NCBI GenBank assembly: GCA_041648975.1
Contig: JBAZNZ010000006.1
Coordinates: 5,723-69,722, forward strand
Source: Candidatus Omnitrophota bacterium
GTDB lineage: Bacteria > Omnitrophota > Gorgyraeia > 2-01-FULL-45-10
Reading direction: 5' to 3'
Length of the DNA: 64,000 nt
Shown here: one piece after another, positions 1 to 16,637 of the stretch
Layout of the letters: each line of letters opens with the position of its first letter
Position numbering within the stretch: position 1 is the first letter of the stretch
Notes under the pieces: generated by a model
Told to the model about the DNA's origin: nothing
Databases searched by the model: none
Seen by the model: the letters and a program-made list of their open reading frames with translations, nothing else
Made by a program: the position numbers and the translations under genes

Positions 1-1
1 A

Positions 2-286: not shown

Positions 287-341
287 TATCGATATAGAGA
301 TCGGCAGGTTTCGTCTCGCCTTCAGCGTCAGGACATACGTT

Positions 342-1133
342 ATGGGGATCCTGAACGTAACTCCCGATTCCTTTTCCGACGGAGGAAAGTTCTTCGACAA
401 GGATAAGGCCGTGAAGCATGCCATGGATATGGCGCGCGAAGGAGCGGACATTATAGACGTCGGAGGGGAGTCTGCAAGGCCCGGCTCAACCGAGATCAGC
501 GTTGAAGAAGAGCTCGATCGCGTCATGCCGGTCGTGGAGGCCATGGCAGGGAAAGCGGGCGTCCCTGTGTCGATAGATACACGAAAAGGGAAAGTGGCTG
601 AGGCCGCATTGAGGGCCGGCGCGAAAATAGTGAATGACATTTCGGGATTCAAGTATGATCCGTATCTGGCTGCCGTTACCGCGCGATATGACGCAGCTGT
701 CATATTGATGCACATGCGCGGGACGCCTCTAGATATGCAGAAGGCGCCGCGCTACAAGAATGTGATGAAAGAGGTTGCCGGGGAATTGCAGCGATCTATC
801 AAGATCGCCGTCGATGCGGGTGTGAAAAAGGAGAAGGTGATCATAGATCCCGGTATAGGTTTTTCAAAGACTGCCGAACACAATCTCGTCATCCTCAACA
901 GGCTTGATGAGATCAAGGCTCTGGGCTATCCGGTCTGCGTCGGGACTTCGAGAAAGTCATTCATAGGAAAGGTCCTGGGCATCGAGGGTACGAATAACAG
1001 GCTGGCAGGTACGCTGGCTACATGTGTAATGGCGATCATGAAGGGCGCCAATATTTTAAGGGTCCATGATGTCAGGGAGGTTGTTGCGGTAAGTCGTATG
1101 ACCGACAGCGTATTACGGGAAAGGGCCTTTTGA
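342..1133 (+). CDS. folP: dihydropteroate synthase
   Basis: Contains the DHPS signature GILNVTPDSFSDGG plus DVGGESARPG and GVPVSIDT, in the 228..1133 ORF. The ATG at 342 (MGILNVTPDSF) is the likely true start, because upstream codons overlap ftsH. Confidence 0.85.
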   Translation: MGILNVTPDSFSDGGKFFDKDKAVKHAMDMAREGADIIDVGGESARPGSTEISVEEELDRVMPVVEAMAGKAGVPVSIDTRKGKVAEAALRAGAKIVNDISGFKYDPYLAAVTARYDAAVILMHMRGTPLDMQKAPRYKNVMKEVAGELQRSIKIAVDAGVKKEKVIIDPGIGFSKTAEHNLVILNRLDEIKALGYPVCVGTSRKSFIGKVLGIEGTNNRLAGTLATCVMAIMKGANILRVHDVREVVAVSRMTDSVLRERAF

Positions 1134-1134
1134 T

Positions 1135-1923
1135 ATGTCATATATTTCGAACTGGAAGATAATCCTGGAACTGGCGCTTCTATGGTATGTGATATATATG
1201 GTACTCCTATTTGTGAAAGGCACGCGTTCGGAGCATCTCCTTAAGGGCCTCCTCATCATAGCATTGATATTCACCATTACCCAGCAACTGAAGCTGGACA
1301 CCATAAATTGGGTGCTCACAAGGCTCGTTCCGATATCTGTAATCGGGCTCGTTGTAATATTCCAGCCGGAGCTTCGTCGGGGCCTCGCGAGGCTGGGACA
1401 GCTTGGCGTCCCGCAGGAGAACGTCGAGGCGATCGACGAGATAGCGAGGGCGTCCTCGGATCTCAGCAAGAGGAAGATAGGCGCTCTTATGGTCATAGAC
1501 AGAGGGAGCGAGCTGAAAAGCTATGTCGAGAGCGGCACGCAGCTTGACAGCAAGGTCAGCGATTATCTCCTGGTTTCGATATTCACGCATCAATCGCCGC
1601 TCCATGACGGCGCTGTCATAATCCAACAGGGACGGTTGACGGCCGCGGGATGCGTATTGCCGCTGCCACAGGACGACAAGGATATCCCGCGCTCTCTCGG
1701 TATGCGGCACCGCGCGGCAGTGGGTATAAGCGAAGAGACCGACGCGCTCTGCGTAGTGGTGAGCGAAGAGACGGGTGCGATCTCGGTTGCCAGCGGAGGC
1801 AACCTGACATACGATATCGGGGAAGATAACCTATCTAAAGTGCTTAAGAGCATACTATATAAGCCGTCGGACCAGAAGACGCCGTTTTCGCATATCTGGT
1901 CCAAAAAGAGGAAGGCAACTTGA
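1135..1923 (+). CDS. cdaA: diadenylate cyclase CdaA (c-di-AMP synthase), N-terminal TM helices plus DAC domain
   Basis: Carries the DAC-domain motifs LHDGAVIIQQGRLTAAGCVLPL and RHRAAVGISEETDALCVVVSEETGAISVA, with two or three N-terminal hydrophobic helices. The ATG follows 1 nt after the folP stop. Confidence 0.8.
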   Translation: MSYISNWKIILELALLWYVIYMVLLFVKGTRSEHLLKGLLIIALIFTITQQLKLDTINWVLTRLVPISVIGLVVIFQPELRRGLARLGQLGVPQENVEAIDEIARASSDLSKRKIGALMVIDRGSELKSYVESGTQLDSKVSDYLLVSIFTHQSPLHDGAVIIQQGRLTAAGCVLPLPQDDKDIPRSLGMRHRAAVGISEETDALCVVVSEETGAISVASGGNLTYDIGEDNLSKVLKSILYKPSDQKTPFSHIWSKKRKAT

Positions 1924-2369
1924 GGATCCCGGAGTTCATTAAAAGTTTTTTTACTAAAAATATAGGACTTAAGGTAACGGCGTTGCTGCTGACATTGGTC
2001 CTATGGTTCTACGTCGTCGGAGAGCTTAATAAGGGCAGCGAGGAAGAGAAGCATTTCCTGAATAAGATACTTCCGTCGGGAGACGTTGCGGCTAAACAGC
2101 TTTCCATACAACCAGTATTCATAGGCAAGCCTCGGCCCGGTTATGCGATAGACATATCGTCAGTGATGGTCGAGCCTGATTACTGTATCGTCATAGGGAC
2201 AAAGGAACTGCTGGGCAAGATACGGGTAGCGTACACTATGCCGATAGACATTGCCGGCGCATCCAGGTCGCTGATCCGGCCCGTGGCGCTTAGCCCGATC
2301 GCGCCCGGTGTTTATATGGAAGAGACGTTCGTGCAGGTCACTGTGCCGATCGAAAAGATCAGGCAATAG
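1920..2369 (+). CDS. CdaR/YbbR-like CdaA regulator (short form)
   Basis: TTG start overlaps the cdaA stop (TTGA). Has an N-terminal TM helix and a YbbR-like beta-rich domain. It sits in the position cdaR usually occupies. Confidence 0.45.
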   Translation: MRIPEFIKSFFTKNIGLKVTALLLTLVLWFYVVGELNKGSEEEKHFLNKILPSGDVAAKQLSIQPVFIGKPRPGYAIDISSVMVEPDYCIVIGTKELLGKIRVAYTMPIDIAGASRSLIRPVALSPIAPGVYMEETFVQVTVPIEKIRQ

Positions 2370-2377
2370 GATCATTT

Positions 2378-3091
2378 ATGGTTAAACTCGGCGTCAATAT
2401 AGACCACGTTGCCACTTTGAGAGAGGCGAGAAAGACCTATATGCCGGATCCGGTAGAAGCGGCCCGGATATGCTTAAAAGCAGGCTGCGATTCGATTGTA
2501 TGCCATTTGCGGGAAGACAGAAGGCATATAAAGGATGCGGATGTGTTGCGGCTGAGAAAGATCCGGGGCATGAGGCTTAATCTCGAGATGTCGGCGGTGA
2601 AAGATATAGTAGATTTCGCGTGTAAGGTGAAGCCTGACCAGGCTACGCTTGTGCCTGAGCGAAGACAGGAGGTCACGACCGAAGGCGGCCTTGATGTAAA
2701 AAAGAATTATAATAAAATAAAATCTGTCGTATCGAGGCTGAAGCGTGCCGGCATTGAGGTCAGCCTATTCATCAATCCGTCGAAACAACAGGTGGATGCG
2801 TCGGCTGATTCCGGCGCTGCGATCATAGAGTTCCATACGGGCGAATATGCCAACGCCGCTTCGAAAGCGGCACGAAGGCGCCAACTAGGTATCCTGAAAG
2901 ATGAAACCGCATACGCTTTGTCGAAGGGTCTCGAAGTTAATGCCGGACATGGATTGAATTACGATAATACGGCTGATGTCGCGGCGATCAAAGGCATGAA
3001 TGAATTGAATATCGGCCACTCTATTATTTGCAGGGCCGTCTTTGTAGGGATGGAAAGGGCGGTCGAAGAGATGCTGGAGATTATAAGATGA
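2378..3091 (+). CDS. pdxJ: pyridoxine 5'-phosphate synthase
   Basis: N-terminus MVKLGVNIDHVATLREAR is canonical PdxJ; also EFHTG and GHGLNY. 237 aa. Confidence 0.85.
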   Translation: MVKLGVNIDHVATLREARKTYMPDPVEAARICLKAGCDSIVCHLREDRRHIKDADVLRLRKIRGMRLNLEMSAVKDIVDFACKVKPDQATLVPERRQEVTTEGGLDVKKNYNKIKSVVSRLKRAGIEVSLFINPSKQQVDASADSGAAIIEFHTGEYANAASKAARRRQLGILKDETAYALSKGLEVNAGHGLNYDNTADVAAIKGMNELNIGHSIICRAVFVGMERAVEEMLEIIR

Positions 3092-3471
3092 TATTCGGCG
3101 CCGGTGTCGACATAGTCGAGGTATTCAGGATGAGAGACGCTATAAATAAGTGGGAGCACAGCTTCCTGTCGAAGATATTTACCGAGAAAGAGATCGGTTA
3201 CTCGATATCACGGAGGTTCTCTTACCAGCACTTTGCCGCCAGGTTCGCGGCAAAAGAGGCGGTTATCAAGGCGTTCGGCGAGCCCCGCAAATTTCCCATC
3301 AAATGGACGGACGTCGAGGTATTGAACGATAAAGAGGGTAAGCCCATGATAGAATTCCGCGGCGACGCGCTTAAGCTGAAAAAGAGGAAGAAGATCGACC
3401 GGATAATCGTCAGCATGTCCCATTCCAAGAATTACGCGATAGCGAACGTTATATTGATGAAGAAAGGTTAG
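3088..3471 (+). CDS. acpS: holo-[acyl-carrier-protein] synthase
   Basis: MIFGAGVDIVEV...FAARFAAKEAVIKAFG. The start overlaps the pdxJ stop (ATGA). pdxJ-acpS linkage is conserved. Confidence 0.8.
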   Translation: MIFGAGVDIVEVFRMRDAINKWEHSFLSKIFTEKEIGYSISRRFSYQHFAARFAAKEAVIKAFGEPRKFPIKWTDVEVLNDKEGKPMIEFRGDALKLKKRKKIDRIIVSMSHSKNYAIANVILMKKG

Positions 3472-3473
3472 CG

Positions 3474-4337
3474 ATGCAGCAGATAAAAGACGCGCTGACG
3501 AAGTTCCCTAAAAGGGCGACGGATGCGCATAAGGGTGACTTCGGCCACGTCCTTGTCATGGCGGGATCGTGCGGATATACCGGTGCTGCGTATCTCGCGA
3601 GCCAGGCCTCAGCGCTTTCGGGCAGCGGACTCGTGACCCTTGCGATAGCGAAAAGCCTGTACGGTGTGCTAGCGTCAAAATTGACGGAGGTAATGGTCCG
3701 TCCGTTCATCGAGACTAAAGACGGTTCCCTAAGTCTCCTGGCCGAAAAAGACCTTGTCGGCTTTGCGCATAAATGTAATTCTATCGCGATCGGCCCTGGA
3801 CTGTCGCAGAATAAGGAGACGCAGCGGCTTGTAAGGAATCTACTGGAAAAACTCGACAAGCCGGTTGTACTTGACGCGGACGGTATTAACGCATTTGTAG
3901 GATGCCTGGATGCCCTGAAAAATTCGAAGCGACCGCTTGTAATGACACCTCATCCGGGAGAGTTGGCGAGGCTGATAGGGAAAGAGGCGGAAGAGATTCA
4001 GAAGGATAGAAAAAATATTGCTTTAAGCTTTGCTAATGAGTATAATACGGTCTTAGTTTTAAAGGGGCACAACACTGTCATTGCAGAACCGGGCGGCGAA
4101 TATTATGTGAATGAGACCGGCAACGTTGGGATGGCTTCCGGCGGCACAGGCGATGTGTTGACAGGAATAATAGCTAGCTTCATAGGACAGGGGCTAGATC
4201 CTTTTACAGCCGCTGTGTTGGGCGTATATTTTCACGGCCTGGCCGGCGATGAGGCGGCTAAAGAGAAGGGCCAACTCAGCCTGCTCGCTACGGATATATT
4301 AAATAAGTTGCCGGAAGTTTTGACGGTGCTGGGGTAG
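3474..4337 (+). CDS. nnrD: ADP-dependent NAD(P)H-hydrate dehydratase (YjeF C-terminal domain, carbohydrate-kinase fold)
   Basis: HKGDFGHVLVMAGSCGYTGAAYLAS, TPHPGELARL and GGTGDVLTGIIAS are YjeF_C motifs. The TAG stop overlaps the downstream tRNA. Confidence 0.75.
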   Translation: MQQIKDALTKFPKRATDAHKGDFGHVLVMAGSCGYTGAAYLASQASALSGSGLVTLAIAKSLYGVLASKLTEVMVRPFIETKDGSLSLLAEKDLVGFAHKCNSIAIGPGLSQNKETQRLVRNLLEKLDKPVVLDADGINAFVGCLDALKNSKRPLVMTPHPGELARLIGKEAEEIQKDRKNIALSFANEYNTVLVLKGHNTVIAEPGGEYYVNETGNVGMASGGTGDVLTGIIASFIGQGLDPFTAAVLGVYFHGLAGDEAAKEKGQLSLLATDILNKLPEVLTVLG

Positions 4338-4403
4338 CTCAATTGGCAGAGCACCGCATTTGTAATGCGGACGTTGAAGGTTCAATTCCTTTCCCCAGCT
4401 CCA
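4328..4403 (+). tRNA. tRNA-Thr (anticodon TGT)
   Basis: 76-nt cloverleaf. Acceptor gctgggg/ccccagc, D arm gctc-aattggca-gagc, anticodon stem ccgca/tgcgg with loop tttgtaa (anticodon TGT, A37), T arm gaagg-ttcaatt-ccttt, encoded CCA. Confidence 0.8.
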
Positions 4404-4653
4404 AGTTATTTAAGTCGAAATAGTACAGATAGGAATTGAAGCGAATACAATAAATATTTATATAAATGCGAAAATTAAATAAATATAAAATCAAATCATT
4501 GTATTGGAATAAGGATTATACAGCTATACGCATTCACGCGTTAATCTAAAGAAGGCAAGAATATACTGGCATAAAATAACAGGAGTGCCGCTTGCTCAAT
4601 TTACTAAGCCATATGTACGAAAAGGAAATCCGAATCTAAGCAATAGAAAATTG

Positions 4654-4682
4654 CTTTACGGGCTTGTCCATATTCGCTATAA
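4654..4682 (+). promoter_or_regulatory. putative sigma70-type promoter for tRNA-Tyr (TTTACG-17-TATAAT)
   Basis: A perfect -10 TATAAT at 4677-4682, with a weak -35 TTTACG 17 nt upstream, lies about 60 nt before the tRNA-Tyr 5' end. Confidence 0.3.
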
Positions 4683-4743
4683 TGACAAAAAGCTGTTGGA
4701 AACGATACATAATTGGATTGATATATATGTAGATCAGTTTAGT

Positions 4744-5039
4744 GGTGAGGTACCATAGCGGCCAAATGGACCAGACTGTGGTGAACGCAGCGTCATGAAG
4801 AAATTCATGATGGAAAAGCGGGTGAATTCAGGGGAGCCCTTAATAGCGAAACATTAAGGGGAATCCTGAGCCAAGCCTAGAACCGTAATGGTTCTTTGAA
4901 GGTGCAGAGACTAAGCGCCCGCCGCCTAAAGTTCGCAAGAACCAAGGTGATGAGATAGTCCAAGCCTCGAGGTAACTTGAGGGCCCTTGAAATCTGGCGG
5001 CGCAAGCCTTCGATGGTTCGAATCCATCCCTCACCACCA
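4744..5039 (+). tRNA. tRNA-Tyr (anticodon GTA), type II, interrupted by a 210-nt group I intron in the anticodon loop (exons 4744..4779 and 4990..5039)
   Basis: Exon 1 is ggtgagg-ta-ccat-AGCGGCCAAA-tgg-a-ccaga-ctgt. The D loop AGCGGCCAAA matches E. coli tRNA-Tyr. Exon 2 is aaa-tctgg-cggcgcaagccttc (long variable arm, GGC/GCC stem)-gatgg-ttcgaat-ccatc-cctcacc-a-cca. The spliced anticodon loop CUGUAAA is the tRNA-Tyr loop, and the acceptor stem is perfectly paired. Confidence 0.8.
4780..4989 (+). ncRNA. group I self-splicing intron (IC3-like, ORF-less) inside tRNA-Tyr
   Basis: Core elements are recognisable. P-like GAATTCAGGGGAGCC, Q-like GGAATCCTGAGCCAAGCC, R-like GGTGCAGAGACTAAG, S-like GATGAGATAGTCCAAG. 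These match the cyanobacterial/plastid tRNA-Leu(UAA) intron core. The 5' splice site follows U, the intron ends in G, and there is no internal ORF. Confidence 0.7.
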
Positions 5040-5184
5040 ACTTAACAGATTTATTGCATAAGTTCTATAGTGTCAGTGAGTTATGCGACCTGGAGATTTT
5101 AGACTTTAACAAAAAGCCATTAAAATTGGTTCCGGTAAAAATATTTTCTGTCTAATATGGAAAGAGGTCTACAACGAATTAACT

Positions 5185-5264
5185 CTTGAAAATTATAGAT
5201 TCAGAAAAAGGATCTGTATGTAAATGAGACAAAGCGCTGGCTGGTATGGCCAGCGCTTTTAATT
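5185..5264 (+). repeat. about 80-nt intergenic module, copy 1 (roughly 75% identical to 6070..6147), ending in a terminator-like hairpin
   Basis: CTTGAAAATTATAGATTCAGAAAAAGGATCTGTATGTAAATGAGACAAAGCGCTGGCTGGTATGGCCAGCGCTTTT aligns with the second copy. Confidence 0.5.
5233..5264 (+). terminator. rho-independent terminator-like hairpin (AGCGCTGGC-TGGTAT-GCCAGCGCT followed by TTTTAATTT)
   Basis: Perfect 9-bp GC-rich stem followed by a T-rich tract. Lies downstream of tRNA-Tyr. Confidence 0.4.
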
Positions 5265-5279
5265 TGGGGGTAATGAGGT

Positions 5280-5528
5280 ATGAATGCTGACGATTATATA
5301 GGGAAAGGCTCGGAACATATAGCAAAGGCTATTGCAGGGGTTGCGAAAGAGCCTCCGTCATGGCAACAATTATTACTTCAGGAGTATTTGAAGGTGGAAT
5401 TAAACAGAGAACTAATAGAGAGCCAAAGGAAGCATCAGGACGATTCAATTAAGCAGATGAAGCACCTTGTTTATGCAACGTGGGGATTAGTCGTGGCAAC
5501 GTTGTTATTGGTGCTAATAAAGCATTAA
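5280..5528 (+). CDS. hypothetical small protein with C-terminal TM anchor (82 aa)
   Basis: ORF with C-terminal hydrophobic helix WGLVVATLLLVLI. No recognisable motif. Confidence 0.35.
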   Translation: MNADDYIGKGSEHIAKAIAGVAKEPPSWQQLLLQEYLKVELNRELIESQRKHQDDSIKQMKHLVYATWGLVVATLLLVLIKH

Positions 5529-5539
5529 AAGGAGAGGCT

Positions 5540-5932
5540 ATGGGATATTTGATAGGTTTTTATCATAACGCGTGGGGATTGGTTCCATTTGCTTTAGTGG
5601 CATCTTTAGTGTTGTTTTTATTCAGAAGGTGTGGCTTCATCAAATATTTCTCTGTTTTATGGTTGGTTCTAATTGGATACGAATATTCACAAGTCTATGG
5701 TGGGAATGTCTATGGAGCTATGATACAGAGTGGAATGGCAAGGACTTATTCTAAAGTGGTGGGTTATCTTGTGGGGTATCTGTATTTTTCTATCGTTGCT
5801 TCTGTTCCATTTATTTTTATGGATGTAATAAAGAGTAAACTAGCTAAAAAACTATATCTTTTGATGTTCGTTATATTTATGTGGGTAACGCCATTTATAT
5901 GTGAATTTATCGGAGATATTGCGAAAAGATAA
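5540..5932 (+). CDS. hypothetical integral membrane protein (about 4 TM, 130 aa)
   Basis: ATG at 5540 is preceded by AAGGAGAGG. Four hydrophobic segments. The longer 5480 start overlaps the previous ORF. Confidence 0.45.
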   Translation: MGYLIGFYHNAWGLVPFALVASLVLFLFRRCGFIKYFSVLWLVLIGYEYSQVYGGNVYGAMIQSGMARTYSKVVGYLVGYLYFSIVASVPFIFMDVIKSKLAKKLYLLMFVIFMWVTPFICEFIGDIAKR

Positions 5933-6069
5933 GTAGGTAGTAGAGAATGAGGAATTATGGGACGCGTCAAAAAAGGACACGCAGTTTGAGTGGAATGCCC
6001 CCAAAGTGACACGTCCCTAATAGCTGCCTTTGCTGCGCAATGCAGAAAGAGGTGTGAAACGAACAAAAA

Positions 6070-6147
6070 CTTGAAGATTTTAGATATAGAAAACGGATCC
6101 GTGTAAATTGGGAGAAGCGCTGGCTATTGTATAGTCTGCGCTTTTTT
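6070..6147 (+). repeat. about 80-nt intergenic module, copy 2 (paralogue of 5185..5264), ending in a terminator-like hairpin
   Basis: CTTGAAGATTTTAGATATAGAAAACGGATCCGTGTAAATTGGGAGAAGCGCTGGCTATTGTATAGTCTGCGCTTTTTT. Confidence 0.5.
6116..6147 (+). terminator. rho-independent terminator (AGCGC...GCGCT followed by TTTTTT) after the 5540..5932 gene
   Basis: Stem agcgc/gcgct with an internal loop, followed by six T. Confidence 0.45.
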
Positions 6148-6182
6148 GCTTGAACGCGTATTTTGTGAGTCATGGCAAGGAG

Positions 6183-6611
6183 ATGGTAATTATGATGAAA
6201 ATTTTAGCGTATATATTCTTCGCATATCTTTACATATCAGTTGGCGTATTTATTTACTTCTTGATTCGTGATAAACGAGGGAAAGTGCCTTATAATCCTA
6301 ATAACCTAAATGGCTTGTCAGCGATTTTTTCGCTTGGAACACTTATTATGCTTTGGTTAATTTTAAGCATAGGCATAGAAAAGTTTTTACTTGCACCCAT
6401 ACCTTATTCTTGGGGGTGGCACGAAGGAGAAGGAGTTAAGAATTCATTAAGATTCAATTTAGCTTGGATGATTGCTCTTGCAATATCAGTTTATATATTT
6501 TGGATTATAGGAGAGCTTCAAAGGAAAGAAAAGGTTATAAAAGAGTTGCAAGCTCGGTATCAAAAATTAAAGGGGACAGATAAAGGGGAGTGCAAAAATG
6601 GGCATGGCTAA
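6183..6611 (+). CDS. hypothetical membrane protein (3 TM, C-terminal coiled-coil/K-rich tail)
   Basis: ATG at 6183 follows AAGGAG. Hydrophobic helices ILAYIFFAYLYISVGVFIYFLI, LSAIFSLGTLIMLWLILSIGI and LAWMIALAISVYIFWIIG. Overlaps the next gene. Confidence 0.45.
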   Translation: MVIMMKILAYIFFAYLYISVGVFIYFLIRDKRGKVPYNPNNLNGLSAIFSLGTLIMLWLILSIGIEKFLLAPIPYSWGWHEGEGVKNSLRFNLAWMIALAISVYIFWIIGELQRKEKVIKELQARYQKLKGTDKGECKNGHG

Positions 6612-7143
6612 TCTTTCAGACATAAAATCAGAGCCGATTCTTCTCAAAGATAAGGAGTGGAGCTTGATTGATGGCGAGCTTTGTCTTGTAACGGAATTTT
6701 TCCCAATGATGGGGAGTAGCGTTAAGGATGGGGTTGTAATATCGCCCAGCACCTCCGCCCCTTACGCAAAAATTACTATTAGATGTAAAAAAATACCCAC
6801 TGAAATAACCGCCTTTATAACACATTCCATTGACTTTGCTAACCTTTGGGATGCCTTTAGGTATAGAGAAACACATAATAAGACCGATGAGATACTTATT
6901 TATTGGTCAACGAAGCATTATAATAGTGTCATTGCAAAGATAATATCCTCGGTTATGCTAACTATCCTCGGTGGCACGTCTCTGCCGAAAATCCTTATTA
7001 TGCTTCGTCCTAACGGTGCTTATGAAAAAAGCGGGAGTGATTCAAGATTGCCCCACGATATAAATGCAAATGTTTTTATATATGGCTCATTACCTATTAA
7101 GTGTTGGATACCTGATATTATGAATGAGGCAGTTAAACATTAA
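6598..7143 (+). CDS. hypothetical soluble protein (181 aa)
   Basis: The start overlaps the upstream gene end, suggesting translational coupling. No known motif recognised. Confidence 0.45.
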   Translation: MGMANLSDIKSEPILLKDKEWSLIDGELCLVTEFFPMMGSSVKDGVVISPSTSAPYAKITIRCKKIPTEITAFITHSIDFANLWDAFRYRETHNKTDEILIYWSTKHYNSVIAKIISSVMLTILGGTSLPKILIMLRPNGAYEKSGSDSRLPHDINANVFIYGSLPIKCWIPDIMNEAVKH

Positions 7144-7166
7144 AAGCTAAATAGAGAGGTGCGAAA

Positions 7167-7532
7167 ATGTCAGAGCAAAATCCTGCAACAATAATAAAAA
7201 ACGCAGTAGAAGACCTTGCGGGGAAAATAATATTTTTATCAGGCGAAGTAGCAACTTTTAAGCAAGCTCTGTGCGACCTCGTAATCAAGGCGAATGATTC
7301 GAGCAATAAAATGCTTAAGGCTTCAAAGATGTATTTTGCAGGAAGTATTATTCTGTCAGCAGTTATAGCCTTTAGTGCGTTAGTTCCTAAGTGGGGTTTT
7401 GTATCCACTCAAGGCGGTTATACATTAAAGTATAATCAGGTTACAGGGAAAGCTGTTGTGTATAAATGTAATTATTCAACCGAAGGGAAGTATGTATACC
7501 AAGAATTCCCTGTCGAAAAATATAAGCCTTAA
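7167..7532 (+). CDS. hypothetical protein with one central TM helix (121 aa)
   Basis: Follows the previous ORF after 23 nt. Central helix is AGSIILSAVIAFSALV. Third gene of an apparent operon. Confidence 0.4.
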   Translation: MSEQNPATIIKNAVEDLAGKIIFLSGEVATFKQALCDLVIKANDSSNKMLKASKMYFAGSIILSAVIAFSALVPKWGFVSTQGGYTLKYNQVTGKAVVYKCNYSTEGKYVYQEFPVEKYKP

Positions 7533-7640
7533 GATTTCGTTGTTAAAGAAATAAATGAACAATCAAGCCATAGCATATTGCGGATGCTTTACCGATATGC
7601 AGGAAATGTTGATTCTTGACAGCATACCTTTTTAGGTGTC

Positions 7641-7681
7641 TTGACACTACAGGTGTAATATGCTACACTTATCGGTGTAAT
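7641..7681 (+). promoter_or_regulatory. sigma70 promoter (TTGACA-17-TACACT) with flanking GGTGTAAT direct repeats (putative operator)
   Basis: Consensus -35 TTGACA at 7641-7646 and -10 TACACT at 7664-7669. GGTGTAAT occurs at 7652-7659 and again at 7674-7681, straddling the -10 element. The site lies just upstream of the wHTH-nucleotidyltransferase gene. Confidence 0.45.
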
Positions 7682-7694
7682 GTGAGGAACGCAT

Positions 7695-8240
7695 ATGATC
7701 CCGCTTAAATCGACAATAACTAAAAAGATACTAAATTACTTTTTTGTCAATCCACAAGAAAGCTTATATGTAAATGAGCTGTCCCGGAAGCTATTTCTGG
7801 ATAAAAGGAACCTGGTAAAAAAGATCAAGGAGCTAGAGGCTGAAGGGATATTGGTTCATGAGACGAGAGGCAACCTTAAGTTATATGCTATAAATGCTAG
7901 CTATCCTTTATATAAAGAATTTCGTAAAATTATCATGACAACGGTAGGAGTCGAGGAACAACTGAGGCATCTTTTAAAAGGAGTTACTGGAGTTAAAGAA
8001 GCGTATATTTATGGCTCATATGCGAAAAATGCTATGGATACTCATAGCGATATCGACGTTCTTATTGTAGGTAGTGTAGGTGTTGTAACCGTACAAAAGC
8101 ACATAAGCAAGCTACAGAGAGAAATAGATAGGGAGATAAGCGTTACTGTTATGACCAAAAAGGACTTTACCCGGCGCGTAAAGGCAAAAGATCCCTTTAT
8201 TAGTGGTGTGCTCAAACAAAAGCACATAAAGATAATATGA
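7695..8240 (+). CDS. winged-HTH DNA-binding domain fused to a minimal nucleotidyltransferase (MNT/Pol-beta fold), MntA/AbiEii-like
   Basis: The N-terminus (ILNYFFVNPQESLYVNELSRKLFLDKRNLVKKIKELEAEGIL) looks like an ArsR/MarR-type wHTH. The C-terminus carries the NTase motif GSYAKNAMDTHSDIDVLIVG. Confidence 0.65.
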   Translation: MIPLKSTITKKILNYFFVNPQESLYVNELSRKLFLDKRNLVKKIKELEAEGILVHETRGNLKLYAINASYPLYKEFRKIIMTTVGVEEQLRHLLKGVTGVKEAYIYGSYAKNAMDTHSDIDVLIVGSVGVVTVQKHISKLQREIDREISVTVMTKKDFTRRVKAKDPFISGVLKQKHIKII

Positions 8241-8644
8241 TGAAATTCGAAGATAAATATTTCAAAGATTTTGTATTTACAAAGGATCAGGTCAAAAAGA
8301 ATTTCGATAATGCCTTAAAAGATATTAAGATTGCGCGTCAAGATGCCATCCCGGATGTCAAATTCACATACTCTTATGATGCACTTATTAAAGGTGGTAT
8401 TGCTTTGATAAGCAGCTACAACAAAAAAGTCAAAAGTGCGCCAGGGCATCATGTGAAGATTATAGAGATGGTTGCGAAAATATTAAATGACGACACAATT
8501 GAAGCTGTGGGCGGCGCTATGCGCTCAAAGCGCAATGTGGATTTCTACGATGGCGGGGTGGAGGTTACCGAAAAAGAGGCGTGCGAATATTTGGGTTTCG
8601 TAGACAGTATTTTGAAAAAAATTGAAAAAGCCTTAAATATCTGA
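8237..8644 (+). CDS. hypothetical protein, putative partner of the upstream nucleotidyltransferase (possible toxin or antitoxin)
   Basis: ATGA overlap with the NTase gene suggests a coupled two-gene module. No canonical HEPN Rx4-6H motif was seen, so its family is undetermined. Confidence 0.4.
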   Translation: MMKFEDKYFKDFVFTKDQVKKNFDNALKDIKIARQDAIPDVKFTYSYDALIKGGIALISSYNKKVKSAPGHHVKIIEMVAKILNDDTIEAVGGAMRSKRNVDFYDGGVEVTEKEACEYLGFVDSILKKIEKALNI

Positions 8645-8657
8645 TAATATGCTTGCG

Positions 8658-8705
8658 GGTGAGGAAGTTTCTATATGTTAAGTTCGAGGCGAACCCTCAC
8701 CACCA
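8658..8705 (+). repeat. tRNA-Tyr-derived acceptor/T-arm-like fragment (GGTGAGG...GTTCGAGGCGAACCCTCACCACCA), putative att remnant
   Basis: Its 5' GGTGAGG and 3' CCCTCACC-ACCA reproduce the tRNA-Tyr acceptor stem, and it ends in a T-arm-like CGAAC. It is homologous to 11459..11503. Confidence 0.5.
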
Positions 8706-8884
8706 GTAATATCTACTCAGTTCGACTGAGTATTATAATACCCGCGTTGAAGATGGATTCGCAAAAAGGGTTTTTAAGGGAAAAAAGAATTTTTTCCCTT
8801 ATCGGCGCACGAGAACATCTATGCGGAAGAAAGGATAACATTAAAAGGAAAACATCAGGTTTTCCTTTTAAGGAGCCCATAGCC

Positions 8885-8916
8885 TAAGTTCAGGGCGACG
8901 AATCCGTCCCTCACAA
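8885..8916 (+). repeat. degenerate copy of the tRNA-Tyr 3' end (CGAATCCGTCCCTCAC against tRNA CGAATCCATCCCTCAC)
   Basis: One mismatch over 16 nt to the tRNA-Tyr T-arm/acceptor region. The upstream CCCATAGCC resembles the tRNA-Tyr D-arm CCATAGCGG. Confidence 0.4.
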
Positions 8917-9015
8917 TAGTTAAATGAGTGTGCTATGTGATAATTTTAGACCTAATAATACCCGTAAATTAGCATCCGCAGTTGTGGGGTGCTAATTTTA
9001 TTTTAAGGGGGTAAT

Positions 9016-9609
9016 GTGGAAGAAAAAAATCTAAACGAGACAATTAAAGAAGCGGTTACTGCAGAAAGCCGTAAAGACAGTTGGTTAGAAACGCTTGGCA
9101 TATCATGGGAAGATGTTATTAAGGCACTTGAACAATCGGAGAAAGATGAGAAATATTTAACGGAATTAGCTAAAAAAACAGCATCTAATAAATCGAGACA
9201 CTTTATAGTTGTGCGCAGTATAGTATTAGACATTCATTTGCTTTTGGATTATACCGTAAGCTCTGTCATTGGGTTTATGCTTGTCTTTCGGGGTGGACAT
9301 CATGGAAAGGAATATAATGGGCAAGAGGTTCAGGAAATTATAGATTTTATACATGACAAGGTTGACTATGCAAAGAGGGTGCATATCATAGAGAGGCTGA
9401 AGATATTTAGCAAAGACGCTATCAAAATATTATATGCAGTTAATAATCTTCGAGTTGCTTTTGCTCACGGTAAAAAGAACGTAGAGTACAATTACTTCAA
9501 TAAATCGGTATTTGATAAGAATACTATTGATAGACTACAGGCAGATAAAAACAAGGTATTGGGAGAATACTCGGAGTTTCTGAAGAATAGCACAGATAAG
9601 AAAACATAA
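9016..9609 (+). CDS. hypothetical protein with C-terminal Rx4H motif (possible HEPN/Abi-like)
   Basis: GTG start follows AGGGGG by 6 nt. The C-terminal LRVAFAHG matches the HEPN catalytic Rx4-6H pattern. Confidence 0.4.
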   Translation: MEEKNLNETIKEAVTAESRKDSWLETLGISWEDVIKALEQSEKDEKYLTELAKKTASNKSRHFIVVRSIVLDIHLLLDYTVSSVIGFMLVFRGGHHGKEYNGQEVQEIIDFIHDKVDYAKRVHIIERLKIFSKDAIKILYAVNNLRVAFAHGKKNVEYNYFNKSVFDKNTIDRLQADKNKVLGEYSEFLKNSTDKKT

Positions 9610-9618
9610 GGAGAAGTA

Positions 9619-9646
9619 AGTAGCTGACGTTTAAACGTCAACTACT
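9619..9646. repeat. near-perfect 28-nt palindrome centred on GTTTAAAC
   Basis: AGTAGCTGACGTTTAAACGTCAACTACT has one mismatch. It lies just after the 9016..9609 stop codon. It may be a terminator (no T-tract) or a protein-binding site. Confidence 0.3.
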
Positions 9647-9688
9647 TTGTGGGTAACTAGAGTATTGGGATGAATTAAGAATAAAATA

Positions 9689-10228
9689 ATGAAAATTAAG
9701 ATTAGTAAAATTCAAGCCGCAGAAGCGCAGCTAAATGAAGCTATCTTTTTATTTTTTGATGAGGCTAATCCTGTAGTTATTGAAACATTGATAGGGGCTG
9801 TTATAGGTATATTGCGACCTATAGGTAAAAAATATGGCATTCAAGCCCCTTCCCATGATTCGGATAAAATAAAGCCAGAATATAAGAAGCTATGGATAGA
9901 CACTCTTCATAAAGCTCAGAATTTTTTTAAACACGCTGATAATGATTCAGATGATATTTTATCTTACGAAAATGATATATTGCCTTTTTGCATTGTTGAA
10001 GCATGTCATTTGTTCAGATATGTCGCATCCGATAAATGCTTGAAATATCGACAGTCTCAGCCTGCCCTACTGTTTGAAATATGGTTTTGGCTGAAATATC
10101 CCCATTTATTAAAAGACTTAGCTGAGACTGAGAAATTCTTGCAGGCTGTAGGTATGCCAAAAAGTTTTAGTGTTGATGATTTCGAAGTGCTGAAAATGTT
10201 GGCAGATAAGTATCGGATAAAATTATAG
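9689..10228 (+). CDS. hypothetical protein (179 aa)
   Basis: ORF with its ATG following GGGATGAATTAAGAATAAAATA. No recognised motif. Confidence 0.4.
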   Translation: MKIKISKIQAAEAQLNEAIFLFFDEANPVVIETLIGAVIGILRPIGKKYGIQAPSHDSDKIKPEYKKLWIDTLHKAQNFFKHADNDSDDILSYENDILPFCIVEACHLFRYVASDKCLKYRQSQPALLFEIWFWLKYPHLLKDLAETEKFLQAVGMPKSFSVDDFEVLKMLADKYRIKL

Positions 10229-10238
10229 TTTTCTATAA

Positions 10239-10847
10239 GTGGGGGGCATGATGGATACGATATTTTTTATTTCTATAGGTGTGGTTGGCATCATTAGTGT
10301 GCTCGTAGGATTTTTGCCGCAAGAAAAATTAAGCAGGCATCTTAAAATATTATTTCTTGTAATCACGGCAGCGTGTCTTATGTTTCAAGGGTTTTACGGG
10401 TTAAAAGAGAAGAGATCCTCGGATTATAAAAAATACAGAGATGACTTGTACCAAAACGATATGCTAACGGGGCAAAGTGAGATTTCGGATGGTATGAAGG
10501 AACTGAAAGAAAAAAGTAAAAAAGGTGTTTTAACAGAGGCCGAATATGGACTGTATATTTCCAATTATTTAGAAAGCATAGATCTTAGCTTAAAGCGCTT
10601 GGGTTGGAAACATAATAGAGAGCGGATCATTGATTATTATGAAGAAATTGCTAAGATTCCAGATTATTTTACTTTTCAAGAATGGAGTGCTGCCGAGGCA
10701 TTTATATATAACTCGATGATGGATGAGATCAACAATAATTTCAGTGCTAGAAATATGTACGATAGTAGCGCAAGAACAAAAGTGCTGGAGAGTTTTGAGC
10801 GCGAACGCGGAAGGCTAATTACAGCAAAAGAAAGAGAGTTTAGTTAA
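10239..10847 (+). CDS. hypothetical membrane protein with SHOCT-like motif
   Basis: Two N-terminal TM helices. KELKEKSKKGVLTEAEYGLYISNYL resembles the SHOCT oligomerisation motif (G-[LIV]-[LI]-T-x-E-E-Y). Confidence 0.4.
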   Translation: MGGMMDTIFFISIGVVGIISVLVGFLPQEKLSRHLKILFLVITAACLMFQGFYGLKEKRSSDYKKYRDDLYQNDMLTGQSEISDGMKELKEKSKKGVLTEAEYGLYISNYLESIDLSLKRLGWKHNRERIIDYYEEIAKIPDYFTFQEWSAAEAFIYNSMMDEINNNFSARNMYDSSARTKVLESFERERGRLITAKEREFS

Positions 10848-10921
10848 AACAAGGGAATGAGAAGGGTGGCTCTATTAAATGTTAGATATGTTTGTTCCCG
10901 TAAAATATATTTACAATTATA

Positions 10922-10950
10922 TTGACAAAAATATGTATATCGAGTATACT
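10922..10950 (+). promoter_or_regulatory. sigma70 promoter (TTGACA-17-TATACT) for brnT-brnA, overlapping palindrome GTATATCGAGTATAC
   Basis: Consensus -35 with a near-consensus -10 ending 5 nt before the ATG, implying a leaderless or short-leader mRNA. The palindrome over the -10 is consistent with an autorepressor operator. Confidence 0.4.
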
Positions 10951-10955
10951 TAATT

Positions 10956-11237
10956 ATGCTCGAAGAACATAACAGTTTTGTGTGGGATCCGAGGAAAGAA
11001 AGAATAAATGTAATAAAGCACCGGATCGATTTTACTACGGCAGCCTATGCATTCGACGATCCTAAAAGAAAGATATTTGCCGACCTTTGGCATAGTGAGC
11101 ACGAACAAAGATATTTTTGTATAGGAAGGATAAATAATAAGATAGTAACCGTGCGCTTTACTCGTAGGGGTAACAAGATTAGGATAATTGGCGCGGGTTA
11201 CTGGAGAAAGGGGAGAAAATACTATGAAAAAGCATAA
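10956..11237 (+). CDS. brnT: BrnT-like type II toxin (DUF497 ribonuclease)
   Basis: FVWDPRKERINVIKHRIDFTTAAYAFDDP...IIGAGYWR matches the BrnT/DUF497 signature (F-x-WD-x-x-K-x-x-x-N-x-x-KHG-[IV]-x-F). Confidence 0.7.
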   Translation: MLEEHNSFVWDPRKERINVIKHRIDFTTAAYAFDDPKRKIFADLWHSEHEQRYFCIGRINNKIVTVRFTRRGNKIRIIGAGYWRKGRKYYEKA

Positions 11238-11454
11238 AATCGATTACGATATGCCTATAGGTGAACTAAAAAGAATAGACGACTTTTTACCGCCTCCCAA
11301 GGACCTGGCTATGCCGGAACATACCGTTATGGTTACTTTGAGGCTTAGCGAGAAGAGTGTTGAATTCTTCAAAGATCAGGCTAAAAAGTATCATACCAAG
11401 TACCAGAAGATGCTTAGATTTTTGGTGGATAAGTACGCGGAGAAGTATTCATAA
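11224..11454 (+). CDS. brnA: BrnA-like antitoxin (RHH/CopG family)
   Basis: Begins at MKKHKIDYDMPIGELKRIDDF and overlaps the brnT 3' end. Size and position match the BrnA antitoxin. The upstream extension of the ORF from 11188 is unlikely to be translated. Confidence 0.6.
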   Translation: MKKHKIDYDMPIGELKRIDDFLPPPKDLAMPEHTVMVTLRLSEKSVEFFKDQAKKYHTKYQKMLRFLVDKYAEKYS

Positions 11455-11458
11455 AAAG

Positions 11459-11503
11459 TGAGGGAATTCTATCTGTTAAGTCCAGATCGAACCCTCACCA
11501 CCA
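11459..11503 (+). repeat. tRNA-Tyr-derived acceptor/T-arm-like fragment, right-end att-like repeat (GTGAGGG...GATCGAACCCTCACCACCA + TTTTTT)
   Basis: About 80% identical to 8658..8705. Ends in CCCTCACC-ACCA as tRNA-Tyr does. The AT-rich island ends here. Confidence 0.5.
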
Positions 11504-11875: not shown

Positions 11876-14800
11876 ATGAGAAATAAAATGGCGTTACACG
11901 AACCGGATATTGGAGCGCTGTTAAAATATGCCAATGGTATTATAGCTACGCTAAGAGAGCCTTTTTTGGTCTTGGACAAGAACTTAAAAGTCATTTCCGC
12001 CAACAAATCCTTTTTCACCATCTTTAAGGTCACGGGAAAAGAAACAATCGGCCAGCCGCTTTATGATCTAGGAAACAAACAATGGAAAATACCTAAGCTG
12101 CTTAAGTTGTTAGAAGAGATCGTGCCGGACAAGAAGATCGTAAAAGATTACGAAGTAGCGCATGATTTTGAACAGATCGGCGCGCGGGTCATGATCCTGA
12201 ATGCGTGCAAGCTGCGTGTTCCTGATGATACCGCGGCAATAATATCGTCGAAAGTAAAAGGAAATATATCAGAAGGGGATCTGATCCTACTGGCCATCGA
12301 AGACGTTACCGAACGTAAGCGGTTGCAGGAAGAATTGAAGGAGTCTGAGGCGCGTTATCGCAGGGCATTTGAGACGTCGCGCGACGGACTGTTGCTCGTG
12401 CATAAAACCGAAGGCAGCATCCTGAACTCTAACGAATCTGCGCAGGAATTATTGAGATATTCCCATGCTGAGCTTTTGAAAAAGAAACTCTGGGGAATAT
12501 GCGCGGTTAAAGACCGCGAGGATTTTCTAAAGACAATGTCAAGGCTGGAAAAAGACGGTGTAGTGCATTACGAAGACATTTCGGTAAAGACCAAAGAAGG
12601 CCTGAGCATTGATTCAGAGGTCATTTTAGTCAATAAAGCGAAAGTCATGCAATGCAACATCCGTAACATCACCGAGCGTAAGCGCATAGAGGGTGAATTG
12701 ACGCTGGCCAAGGAACGGGAGTACAGGACGCTTATTGAAAGTCTCCCCGGAAAGGTGTTTTTAAAAGACAAGGATTCGGTTTACAAATTCTGCAATGAAG
12801 AATACGCAAAGGACCTCAAGATAAAAGCCGATGAGATCGCAGGCAGGACAGACTATGAGTTTTTCCCTACGCATTTAGCTGAAAAATACAGGGCTGACGA
12901 TAAGAGAATCGTACAATCCGGGGAAACTGAGAACTTTGAAGAGGAGTATATGGTGATAGGGGATTACCTTGATAAGGCTAAGAAGATCATTATCAATACA
13001 GTAAAAGTTCCCGTAAAGAACAAGGTGGGCAACGTTACGGGGATCCTTGGTTTCTTCTGGGATATCACCGAGCGCAAGAATGCGGAAGAGGAACTGCGAA
13101 AAAATAGAAAGTTGCTGCTCGAAATGACAAGCCAGATTCCAGGCGTTGTCTATCAGTTCTACGCCAGGCCGAATGGCAAGATGGGTGTGTATTATGTCAG
13201 CAGCATGGCGGAACAGATCTTGGGCATAAAACCCGGTCCTGATCTGGAAGGATTTTTTGAGCGATTCAGCGAGCTGGTAGTTCCTGAGTACAGGGAAAGC
13301 TTTTTTAAGTCAATTGATAAGGCGGTCAGCGAAGTAAATGAATGGAAATATGATGGTGTGCTGCAAAAACCTTCAGGCGAGAAAATATGGTTTTCCGGGA
13401 ACGCAACTCCTATACGGCGGGATGATGAGATAATTTTTAATGGGATGATATTTGATATTACCGAGCGTAAGAAAGCGGAGGAGTTATTGCGGGAGAGTGA
13501 ATTAAAATTCAAGGCTATTGTTGAGGGTTCAAACGACGGGATTATTTTTTGCGATACCGAGACTCAGGAGATTGTCTATTCCAACGATGCTATGGCGCGG
13601 TTATTGGGCCATTCAAAGGAAGATATAATCAATATGACCATTCAAAATCTTCATCGTGAAGACGATTGGGGTTCTGTAAAACTGGAGTTCCTACGGCATG
13701 TCACCGGAGAAACTTCTTTATCATCCAATATCCCCGTCGTAAGGAAAGACGGCAGTATTTTTTTTGCGGATGTTGCTTCCGTAAATCTCATTATGGATAA
13801 TAGAAGATATTTTGTAGCCTTTTTTCGGGACGTCACCGAACGTAATAAGGCAGCGGAGGAGATACGTTTAAACCAGGAAAAGATCAGAGTTATTTTTGAC
13901 CAAACCTTCCAGTTCATCGGCATGATGACGGTGGACGGGAAATTGATAGAGGCAAACAGGACGGCTATGGAGTTTGCCGGTATTGAAAAATCGGATTGCA
14001 TAGGCAAATTTTTCTGGGATACTCCCTGGTGGACGCATTCTAAAAAGATGCAGGATAACCTGCGTGAAGCCGTAATAAAAGCCGCTAATGGCGAAACCGT
14101 GTTTTTCGAAGCGACCCATCCGGCCGCCGACGGATGCATACATTACGTGGATTTTTCGCTTAAGCCGATCAGGGACCAAAACGGCAAGGTGGTATTTCTT
14201 ATCCCTGAAGGGCGCGACATTACCGATCGTAAGAAGGTGGAGAACGAGCGTGAAATGACATTAAAATGGCAAGAGGATGTAAATGCGCTCAGGCAATCGC
14301 TTCTTGTTCCTTCTCCCCTTGAGCATAAGCTCAAGGTAATAACCGATAGCGCCGTGCGGATCTTCAACGCCGATTTTTGCCGGATATGGCTGACCCGGCC
14401 GGGAGATCTGTGCGACAAAGGTTGCGTACACGCCAAAGTTACTGATGGGCCGCATGTATGCCGTTTTCGCAACAAGTGCCTGCATTTAGTAGCAAGCTCC
14501 GGCAGGTACACCCACATAGACGGTAAAGGACATGCCCGTGTACCGTTCGGATGTTATAAGATCGGGCTCGTCGCTTCCGGCGAGGAGCATAAATTCCTGA
14601 CGAATGACGTGCCAAACGATCCAAGAGTGCATGATCATGAATGGGCTCGCGAATTGGGTCTGGTGTCGTTCGCGGGTTACCAGCTCAAAAATACCAGTGG
14701 AGATACGTTCGGTGTTATGGCGCTCTTTGCCAAGCATCCGATACTTCCGGCTGAAGATGCGATGTTGTACAGTCTCAGCGTCACCATTTCTTTTGTTGTC

Positions 14801-15538: not shown

Positions 15539-15539
15539 T

Positions 15540-15908
15540 ATGGGAAAAATGATCCTCGTAGTTGACGATGAACCTGACATTATGGATGTTGCGACAGTCA
15601 GGTTGAGGCACTTAGGATATGAAATAGTACCTGCGGCCGATGCAGAGGAGGCTCTGGTTGTTTTACAGAAGGATGTTCCCGATCTAATATTGCTGGATCT
15701 GCTCTTGCCCAACATGCAAGGCGACGAGCTCTGTAAAAAATTGAAATCTGACAATAAATTTAAAAATATCCCCATTATACTATTTACAGCCAGCGCTATC
15801 CGGACCAGCCTGCCGGAAAAGGTTAAAGAGATAGGCGCGGATGATTGCATATTGAAGCCATTTGAGCCGCAGGAATTATTAAGTAAAGTCAAAAAATTTA
15901 TAGGATGA
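15540..15908 (+). CDS. single-domain response regulator (CheY-like receiver)
   Basis: ILVVDDEPDI...LILLDLLLPNMQGDELCKKLK...ILFTAS. Starts 1 nt after the kinase stop. Confidence 0.8.
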   Translation: MGKMILVVDDEPDIMDVATVRLRHLGYEIVPAADAEEALVVLQKDVPDLILLDLLLPNMQGDELCKKLKSDNKFKNIPIILFTASAIRTSLPEKVKEIGADDCILKPFEPQELLSKVKKFIG

Positions 15909-16552: not shown

Positions 16553-16637
16553 GAAGTAGTTAAACTGAGGTCCGACGAAGGACCTATATCGGTTCACTAT
16601 TTTGTACTGAAAATAGAGTAAAGGTATTTCGACAGCT

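Follow-up and report, generated by a model that had tools for sequence, protein, structure and literature searches.

Cis-mobilizable elements (CIMEs) and accretion arrays of integrative elements have been described for Streptococcus thermophilus ICESt1/3. In these, segments that lack recombination genes are flanked by attachment (att)-type repeats, and a single attachment site accumulates them side by side with further elements. Chromosomal super-integrons are cassette arrays rich in toxin-antitoxin (TA) cassettes; the cassettes are small and co-oriented, and each is followed by an imperfectly palindromic site-like repeat. In Prochlorococcus, tRNA-anchored islands grow by serial integration and decay, as set out in the tycheposon model (Hackl et al., bioRxiv 10.1101/2020.12.28.424599). 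The present analysis concerns an AT-rich block of ~6.4 kb (positions 5040-11503) that abuts the tRNA-Tyr gene of a Candidatus Omnitrophota bacterium. The window, that is, the whole stretch of DNA analysed, is 64,000 nucleotides long (contig JBAZNZ010000006.1, assembly GCA_041648975.1).

The block is likely to be a composite scar: elements would have integrated site-specifically at the tRNA-Tyr 3' end at least three times in succession and then decayed. It carries repeats of the tRNA end and differs in composition from the core; relatives have homologous intact elements at the same site, and a population variant has its junction at the T-loop. The features by which tRNA-targeted islands are recognized are present: i) a position 3' of an intact tRNA gene; ii) distal direct repeats; iii) polymorphism of content; and iv) deviant composition. 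Serial integration into tRNA-Tyr and subsequent decay, with the tRNA as attL and the copies as attR, had been proposed in a preliminary description of the sequence, and it is supported by the elements found at the same tRNA-Tyr in loci L061 and L064 (related loci are given L numbers). The features that carry the argument are the following.

4744..5039, plus strand: tRNA-Tyr(GUA), the integration target (attL side); exons 4744-4779 and 4990-5039, 210-nt group I intron 4780-4989
7555..7632, plus strand: probable relic of the 5' end of a large serine recombinase gene (MNNQAIAYCGCFTDMQ...); stops after 26 codons, catalytic Ser and Arg replaced
7695-8240 and 8237-8644, plus strand: two-gene module of a winged helix-turn-helix (wHTH) nucleotidyltransferase (NTase) and its partner; PADLOC candidate system PDC-M05 A/B
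8655..8705, plus strand: partial tRNA-Tyr copy c1, short form; attR-type scar, 10 nt 3' of the module stop codon; profile E = 4e-07
8885..8919, plus strand: partial copy c2, long form (retains GAATCC of the T-loop), degenerate; profile E = 0.21
10956-11237 and 11188/11224-11454, plus strand: BrnT toxin and BrnA antitoxin, a type II TA pair with overlapping genes, assigned by Pfam
11458..11503, plus strand: partial copy c3, short form; distal island boundary, 3 nt 3' of the BrnA stop codon; profile E = 3e-06

The block shares with the tycheposon model integration at the 3' end of a tRNA gene, partial tRNA copies left behind, older elements pushed distally and degenerated elements; tyrosine or large serine recombinases and primase-bearing or satellite-like relatives are also common to both. 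The likeness is to the island-growth model only. The host belongs to the Omnitrophota phylum, the target lies in a conserved Thr-Tyr-Gly-Thr-tuf cluster and contains a group I intron, and the surviving cargo consists almost wholly of TA/defence pairs abutting the scars. The architecture, and that alone, also fits CIMEs, but the segments in the window are much smaller (2.5-3.5 kb) and their site is a tRNA gene.

Three degenerate copies of the tRNA-Tyr end had been reported previously and are borne out at 8655-8705, 8885-8919 (weakly) and 11458-11503. The similarity of c1 and c3 to tRNA-Tyr goes beyond chance: the 12-mer CCCTCACCACCA occurs exactly at 5028, 8694 and 11492, against 0.11 matches expected by chance in a scan allowing one mismatch or none. 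The last 24 nt of the tRNA are 83% identical to 8682-8705 and 79% identical to 11480-11503, and c1 and c3 are 84% identical to each other over 37 nt. Copy c1 is built of GGTGAGG, 24 further nucleotides, GTTCG-AGG-CGAAC and CCTCACC-ACCA. Short-form copies of the type GTTCG-NNN-CGAAC-CCTCACCACCA occur in three species, always differ from the tRNA T-arm by the same two substitutions and contain an internal 5-bp inverted repeat. Copy c2 is weak (67% identity to the tRNA end over 24 nt). With an att profile built without it, c2 is the best non-training match (E = 0.21 versus 1.7 for the next), and it is similar to the attR of L061 and to the long form in L040. Partial copies of other tRNAs were not found in the window.

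The block also stands apart in composition. Its GC content is 0.371, versus 0.512 in the left core and 0.496 from tuf onward, and GC at third codon positions (GC3) is 0.29-0.49 in island ORFs versus 0.55-0.70 in core genes. The flanks of about 50% GC described earlier hold for the left side; on the right, the histidine kinase and response regulator genes (11876-15908) are intermediate at 0.453. If there were no island, the AT-rich genes would be native and the tRNA-like matches due to chance or local duplication. The low GC of the neighbouring kinase gene and the failure to find a clean empty site suit such an account, yet it is hardly credible: the GC3 of the block is 0.2-0.3 below all core genes, the 12-mer recurs far more often than expected, homologous scars adjoin recombinases in relatives, and no part of the block is positionally conserved among relatives except cassettes bearing their own tRNA-like copy.

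The strongest comparisons come from related genomes. One genome per species was scanned for the tRNA-Tyr 3' end, giving seven related Omnitrophota loci. Upstream synteny (folP, dacA, pdxJ, acpS, nnrD, tRNA-Thr, tRNA-Tyr) is retained in the relatives at 58-78% amino acid (aa) identity, and 3' of tRNA-Tyr each of the seven related genomes has a different set of genes. In L061, whose upstream synteny is that of the window, tRNA-Tyr is followed by a 3.3-kb element that encodes an HTH_3 protein, a wHTH-NTase, its partner and a 366-aa tyrosine integrase (Phage_integrase) and ends in an attR; next comes the A module, a conserved flank described below. The L061 attR and tRNA have in common a 20-nt identity block, GAATCCTTCCCTCACCACCA. 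The L061 NTase matches the window NTase (7695) at 33% aa identity (E 2e-27), and its partner matches the window partner (8237) at 31% (E 0.004); an L040 pair is closer still, at 73% and 84%. The L064 locus has a phage-like element that encodes a large serine recombinase of 597 aa and then an antitoxin/ParE pair; the stop codon of ParE is immediately followed by a partial tRNA copy, beyond which lies the A module. L047 and L055 have a P4-type primase directly after tRNA-Tyr, and L055 also a large terminase; both contigs end within the element, and the recombinase of these primase-type elements was accordingly not recovered. Because of the L061 and L064 elements at the same tRNA-Tyr, a two-gene toxin/defence module followed by a partial tRNA copy is how recombinase-bearing elements of this tRNA normally end on the right, and window 7695-8705 and 10956-11503 have exactly this form.

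The preliminary description found no integrase, recombinase or transposase gene, and none was detected by Pfam in the ORFs of the island, in the Gly-to-Thr segment or in ORFs at either end of the window; for the tuf, ribosomal-protein and rpoBC stretch, the judgement is from ORF order alone. A tblastn search of the whole window with the L061 integrase gave nothing. The only trace is the 26-codon relic at 7555-7632, which, to judge from its sequence, is probably the stump of a deleted serine recombinase gene. It aligns to the L064 recombinase (which starts MNNKAIAYLRCSTDMQ...) by tblastn at 59% identity over 22 aa (E=0.01), and 39/50 nt match the L064 gene, the similarity stopping after ~50 nt. 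The relic sits in otherwise non-coding DNA just 5' of the PDC-M05 pair, mirroring the L064 order of recombinase, TA pair and partial copy. With this relic, "integrase-less" would mean "integrase deleted". Since its own recombinase is absent, the block is classed as a decayed derivative and not as an autonomous element.

Variation at the site continues. In metagenome ERZ27247363, the L001 contig equals window 1-5131 and then ends. L003, from the same metagenome, is 100% identical to the window from 5016 over 13.2 kb; upstream of 5016, an AbiEii-like NTase and a 58-aa ORF (ORF58) replace the tRNA body, and the switch falls exactly at GTTCGAATCC, the T-loop start. Thus the tRNA-Tyr site still varies within the population. 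The same NTase-ORF58-copy cassette occurs in L050, another species, where it lies beside a histidine kinase gene and not a tRNA and is preceded by a BrnA remnant 87% identical (nt) to the window BrnA. The L003 and L050 cassettes are 89% identical (nt), versus 68-77% nt (64-86% aa) for the flanking core segments, and the cassette was therefore exchanged after the species split.

Such exchange raises the question of whether the toxin/defence pairs with their ~48-nt tRNA-like sites are recombinase-less mobile cassettes moved in trans, a working store and not wreckage. tRNA-Tyr would then be the entry point of a cassette system in which two-gene modules are excised, swapped between co-occurring species and reinserted by the recombinases of resident elements; each module would be tagged with the ~48-nt tRNA-mimicking site, made up of the acceptor-strand dyad and the GTTCG-NNN-CGAAC mini-hairpin. 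If true, the system would do the work of an integron with a tRNA gene as its base and with recombinases of unrelated kinds. The PDC-M05 pair, BrnTA and NTase-ORF58 are found in varied order and position across related species, each with a trailing copy, and NTase-ORF58 adjoins the tRNA in L003 and is distal in L050, with its excess of identity over the core. The copies begin 3-10 nt past the last stop codon in the window, and right after it in L064; the short-form site, which contains an internal inverted repeat, belongs to a sequence type that has been propagated; and all genes are co-directional with the tRNA operon. Intact relatives, however, show the module and copy as the right end of a recombinase-bearing element, and a recombinase relic lies upstream of one of the cassettes. 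The 5' complement (see below) and internal inverted repeat are decayed in c3 and in L050 copies #1 and #3, no circular cassette junction or trans recombinase was seen, and the site occurs in no viral contig of IMG/VR, where the 24-nt tRNA end, a 23-mer of the A module and the L047 primase all lacked a match. Mobilization in trans is therefore a tentative proposal that we consider unlikely. The last ORF of a cassette was also compared with the frame of its tRNA-like copy; four of seven were in frame versus 2.3 expected, which is not significant, and the idea was dropped.

The cassettes also have strong promoter-like sites of their own, unlike those of integrons: one at 7641-7669 (10/12 plus TG), 5' of the PDC-M05 pair, and one at 10922-10950 (11/12), ahead of BrnT. 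The repeats in the window come from a tRNA 3' end and have no attC box structure (R''/L''-L'/R'), the cassettes are multi-gene, and intact relatives bear their own integrase. With tRNA-derived repeats and multi-gene cassettes that have promoter-like sites, the pattern of promoterless cassettes with attC sites is thus absent. For IntI/attI, no tyrosine recombinase was found in the Pfam-scanned ORFs or by tblastn with the L061 integrase across the window. Of the earlier suggestions, a decayed element is supported by the L061 and L064 elements and the relic. An integron-like cassette array is a less likely option, whose defining parts fail here: these searches gave no IntI in the window, and the cassettes have promoter-like sites.

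In c1 and c3, a sequence complementary to the 3' strand of the acceptor (GGTGAGG or GTGAGGG) is present 31-38 nt upstream, and folding of each copy gives a 7-bp acceptor-like stem and a 3' ACCA tail (z = -2.0 and -4.9). Read as RNA, the copies at 8655-8705 and 11458-11503 could be tRNA-like minihelices serving as signals for RNase P/3'-end processing or as stabilizing signals on read-through mRNAs, and the co-orientation of all genes with the Thr-Tyr-Gly-Thr-tuf operon would allow it. This role is very improbable. The Rfam tRNA model gives no score even at E<=1, the homologous 5' strand in L050 has decayed to GGTAAAA with no compensating change, the internal hairpin is not preserved between c1 and c3, and internal terminator-like hairpins and separate promoters oppose a single long read-through transcript. 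The same 5' complement occurs in attR sites beside recombinase genes (L061, L064) and in the L040 long form, and it is therefore explained by site symmetry. The GGTGAGG complement and the internal inverted repeat would thus reflect the symmetry of a recombinase-binding site inherited from attP, and not RNA structure.

Under the preferred reading of serial integration and decay, small integrative elements and prophages of this Omnitrophota clade would recombine with tRNA-Tyr through an attP that mimics the tRNA from T-loop to CCA end, the enzyme being either a tyrosine integrase or a large serine recombinase. Integration would keep the tRNA intact (attL) and mark the distal end of the element with the partial copy (attR), and each newcomer would displace older elements away from the tRNA. 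The two-gene TA/defence module would have the recombinase gene on one side and attR on the other. Deletion in the window would have removed the recombinase along with other element genes and spared the attR-adjacent modules, namely the PDC-M05 pair with c1 and BrnT/BrnA with c3; such modules may persist because the loss of an addictive or protective module is selected against. Block 2 (9016-11503) with c3 would be the oldest, c2 with a decayed flank copy the next, and block 1 (~5160-8705) with c1 the youngest. The recombinase type of each scar is one that we infer.

Several points weigh against this reading. i) None of the relatives yielded an exact empty site, in which tRNA-Tyr and the A module would be followed by the histidine kinase, and insertion is for this reason deduced from scars and variants and not from a before/after pair. 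ii) Block 1 contains five orphan ORFs, and none of them has a homologue among the intact elements that were examined. iii) The location of block 1 downstream of an intact A module requires an A-like arm in some attPs, which is suggested by a single hint, the end of L001 at 5131. iv) The recurrent substitutions of the short-form copies do not come from independent decay; they reflect descent from a propagated attP-type sequence. v) The relic at 7555-7632 is short and its match has E ~0.01, and the peptide alone has no Pfam Resolvase match.

The sequences that adjoin the scars include a conserved flank and two spacers.

5040..5155, plus strand: A module, conserved flank directly 3' of tRNA-Tyr, probably not cargo; conserved at the peptide level (NLTDLLHKFYSVSELCDLEILDFNKKPLKLVPV...)
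8706..8884, no strand: hairpin-rich spacer (179 nt) between c1 and c2, with self-complementary stretches
8920..8985, plus strand: decayed second A-module copy; local alignment score 46 versus L053, tblastx match to L054
11504..11798, no strand: non-conserved spacer; core sequence (PAS histidine kinase, response regulator, tRNA-Gly, response regulator, MoxR/Bat) resumes at ~11799

The A module follows tRNA-Tyr or a partial copy of it in at least nine other loci (L040, L047, L049, L050, L052, L053, L055, L061 and L064), and in L061 and L064 it is present on the chromosomal side of attR. The first ~115 nt 3' of tRNA-Tyr are thus probably a conserved flank rather than cargo. In relatives, A modules lie at L040 1051-1160, L050 1844-1960, L053 14391-14500, L061 7267-7380 and L064 7863-7965. 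The peptide reads ..LHxFxxxNELCDxExLDFNKKPxELVPV, and substitutions are of the synonymous type, mostly at third codon positions. In eight of ten species the reading frame continues without a stop across the tRNA 3' end, and it has no canonical or usable start codon. A profile search of 5.8 billion proteins returned only ORF calls of 32-94 aa and no long protein. The idea that the module is the displaced 3' end of an attP-spanning integrase gene, as in Mx8 or SSV, was rejected on that result and is further ruled out by the L061 integrase, which ends before attR.

The alignment score of 8920-8985 to A modules was equalled by 1/500 shuffles, and c2 with this decayed copy is an older attR/chromosome junction. 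The spacer at 8706-8884 is probably the remainder of a further element. The layout of a copy, ~175 nt and a long-form copy is also found at L040 852-1050 and L050 794-984. The L040 (852-1020) and L050 (794-955) spacers are homologous (73% over 95 nt) and each is a ~120-nt palindrome; the window spacer is similar in size and different in sequence. These ~175-nt spacers were considered as integrase-gene remnants, and this was rejected since comparison with the L061 element by blastn and blastx aligned nothing beyond the att core. On the right, the L050 alignment begins at window 11799, and the downstream gene order is common to L050. Conserved sequence resumes there, and the right island boundary therefore lies between 11503 and ~11799.

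The remaining features of the island are as follows.

5144..5263, plus strand: leader repeat copy 1, ending in a terminator-like hairpin (5231-5259) just 5' of ORF 5280; fold z = -4.55; repeat families D2, D19
5280-5528 (82 aa) and ~5540-5932, plus strand: two small orphan ORFs, GC3 0.31-0.45, hydrophobic translations
6029..6150, plus strand: leader repeat copy 2, with the same hairpin, 5' of ORF 6150; aligns to copy 1
6150-6611 (hydrophobic translation), 6598-7143 and 7167-7532, plus strand: three orphan ORFs without a family match
9016..9609, plus strand: orphan ORF, 197 aa, predicted all-helical; R-x4-H motif (RVAFAH) seen by eye only
9689..10228, plus strand: putative AbiV-like HEPN-fold protein, 179 aa, with a conserved NFFKHAD motif
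10239..10847, plus strand: orphan ORF, 202 aa, hydrophobic N-terminus, without a family match

Defence-type cargo, as anticipated, was recovered by Pfam and PADLOC searches: the PDC-M05 pair and BrnT/BrnA. A putative AbiV-like HEPN protein and hydrophobic and orphan ORFs accompany them. PADLOC assigns PDC-M05A at 6.2e-44 and PDC-M05B at 2.4e-09, and the NTase at 7695 matches Pfam PF18765/PF01909 (Polbeta/NTP_transf_2). An MntA/HepT assignment is not reached, the NTase scoring 24.9 bits with the NCBIfam MntA model against a cut-off of 60 and the partner having no Pfam HEPN match. BrnT (PF04365) scores 75.7 bits (cut-off 34.5; 3.7e-21) and BrnA (PF14384) 26.7 bits (cut-off 26.1; 7.5e-06). The cargo resembles the TA/Abi modules that prophages carry beside attR (BrnT/BrnA, MNT/HEPN-like, AbiV) in its BrnT/BrnA pair, above the Pfam cut-offs, and its PDC-M05 match. 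It differs in that the NTase is under the MntA cut-off and ORF 9689 has a K-H motif.

In ORF 9689, the K-H motif takes the place of the canonical R-x4-6-H. Its family comprises 1561 cluster representatives at E<=1e-3, of ~170-190 aa and without a Pfam model, in which K7, K81 and H82 are invariant; it is a candidate new named HEPN subfamily with a predicted AbiV-like fold. ORF 9016 has no family or PDB sequence match, and a single-sequence structure model was unusable (predicted local distance difference test, 46). The remaining island ORFs have no match in Pfam, NCBIfam or PHROGs, and the orphans of 5280-5932 and 6150-7532 also none in PADLOC; the ORFs in 5280-5932 probably encode membrane proteins, judging by their translations. 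The leader repeats (~115 nt, 73-79% identical) each precede an orphan gene group, with a strong GC-rich hairpin and a T run (plus strand) right before the start codon, an arrangement suggestive of an attenuator or of a cis-regulatory RNA of a new type. Rfam searches of the island at E<=1 matched only the intron; the leader repeats and minihelices match no RNA family.

The tRNA-Tyr gene placed at the island edge in the preliminary description is real, as indicated by ARAGORN and by the Rfam match of its intron, although its 3' end is 5039 and not 5040. The gene is absent from the default ARAGORN output because of the 210-nt group I intron; when introns are allowed, tRNA-Tyr(gta) is reported at 4744-5039 with an intron of that length. 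The intron matches RF00028 at 4768-4982 (86.4 bits). The spliced sequence forms a normal cloverleaf (ARAGORN), and both exons align with intron-less orthologues in L027, L031, L034, L040 and L049. The intron sits in the anticodon loop, after position 36. Among the relatives examined, it is found only in the window and in L011 (84% identical), and it is missing from at least six other Omnitrophota tRNA-Tyr genes with otherwise near-identical exons.

The window gene cluster consists of tRNA-Thr(tgt), tRNA-Tyr, tRNA-Gly, tRNA-Thr(ggt), tuf and tRNA-Trp; secE/nusG, ribosomal proteins and rpoBC, which follow tRNA-Trp, were assigned from ORF sizes and order (not all scanned). All genes in the window are on the plus strand. 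The tRNAs are spread apart in this lineage: the gap from Tyr to Gly is 11.3 kb, and a MoxR/Bat operon lies between tRNA-Gly and tRNA-Thr. The cluster is split by the PAS histidine kinase/response regulator pair and the complete MoxR/Bat operon, and the arrangement is the same in L050. Two ORFs of equal length (398 aa) lie at the expected tuf positions, 26158-27354 and 41715-42911. The spacer between tRNA-Thr and tRNA-Tyr is variable. In the window (4404-4743) it is 340 nt long, has 31% GC and holds only an unmatched 57-aa ORF (4585-4758); in L040 (324-719) and L061 (3415-3777) it holds a gene for a four-helix protein of the 23S-rRNA-intervening-sequence type. A ~78-nt element downstream of tRNA-Gly (16620-16697) folds well on either strand (z = -3.2, -3.9). 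Counterparts 85-86% identical to it lie in the spacer from tRNA-Thr to tRNA-Tyr in L047 and, inverted, in L027, and it is possibly a small element, mobile or regulatory, associated with tRNA genes.

Other observations were made in the related loci. Assemblies repeatedly break just 3' of tRNA-Tyr (L001, L011, L049, L052, L053, L054 and L055), a further sign of continuing variation at the site. L061 (7193-7381) and L058 (8001-8201) are on one contig (ERZ27248961 k141_412916 / Ga0268280_1001288) and contain two units of partial copy and A module ~7 kb apart, which bracket housekeeping genes: phosphoenolpyruvate carboxykinase, purC, purE, an aminotransferase and an OmpA-like protein. The tRNA-like sites may also flank and move core segments. 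Large circular elements with ribosomal-protein operons have been reported in Omnitrophota (preprint 10.64898/2026.05.20.726742). In L050, a 2434-aa protein is encoded 3' of a partial tRNA-Tyr copy and A module and is preceded by a c-di-GMP-I-GGC riboswitch-like match at 2068-2156 (51.9 bits, below the gathering score of 59).

The general mechanism of tRNA-targeted integration is already well established, and the finding extends known biology without adding a new mechanism. It points to a lineage-wide tRNA-Tyr integration hot spot in the Omnitrophota, a poorly known, uncultured phylum, in which at least two recombinase classes use the same tRNA end. The attR-adjacent TA/defence pair outlasts the rest of the element, and arrays of a pair plus a partial tRNA can be read as a fossil record of integration. 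The PDC-M05 pair, the putative AbiV-like HEPN protein with its large unnamed family (>1500 representatives) and several orphans are candidates for studies of defence.

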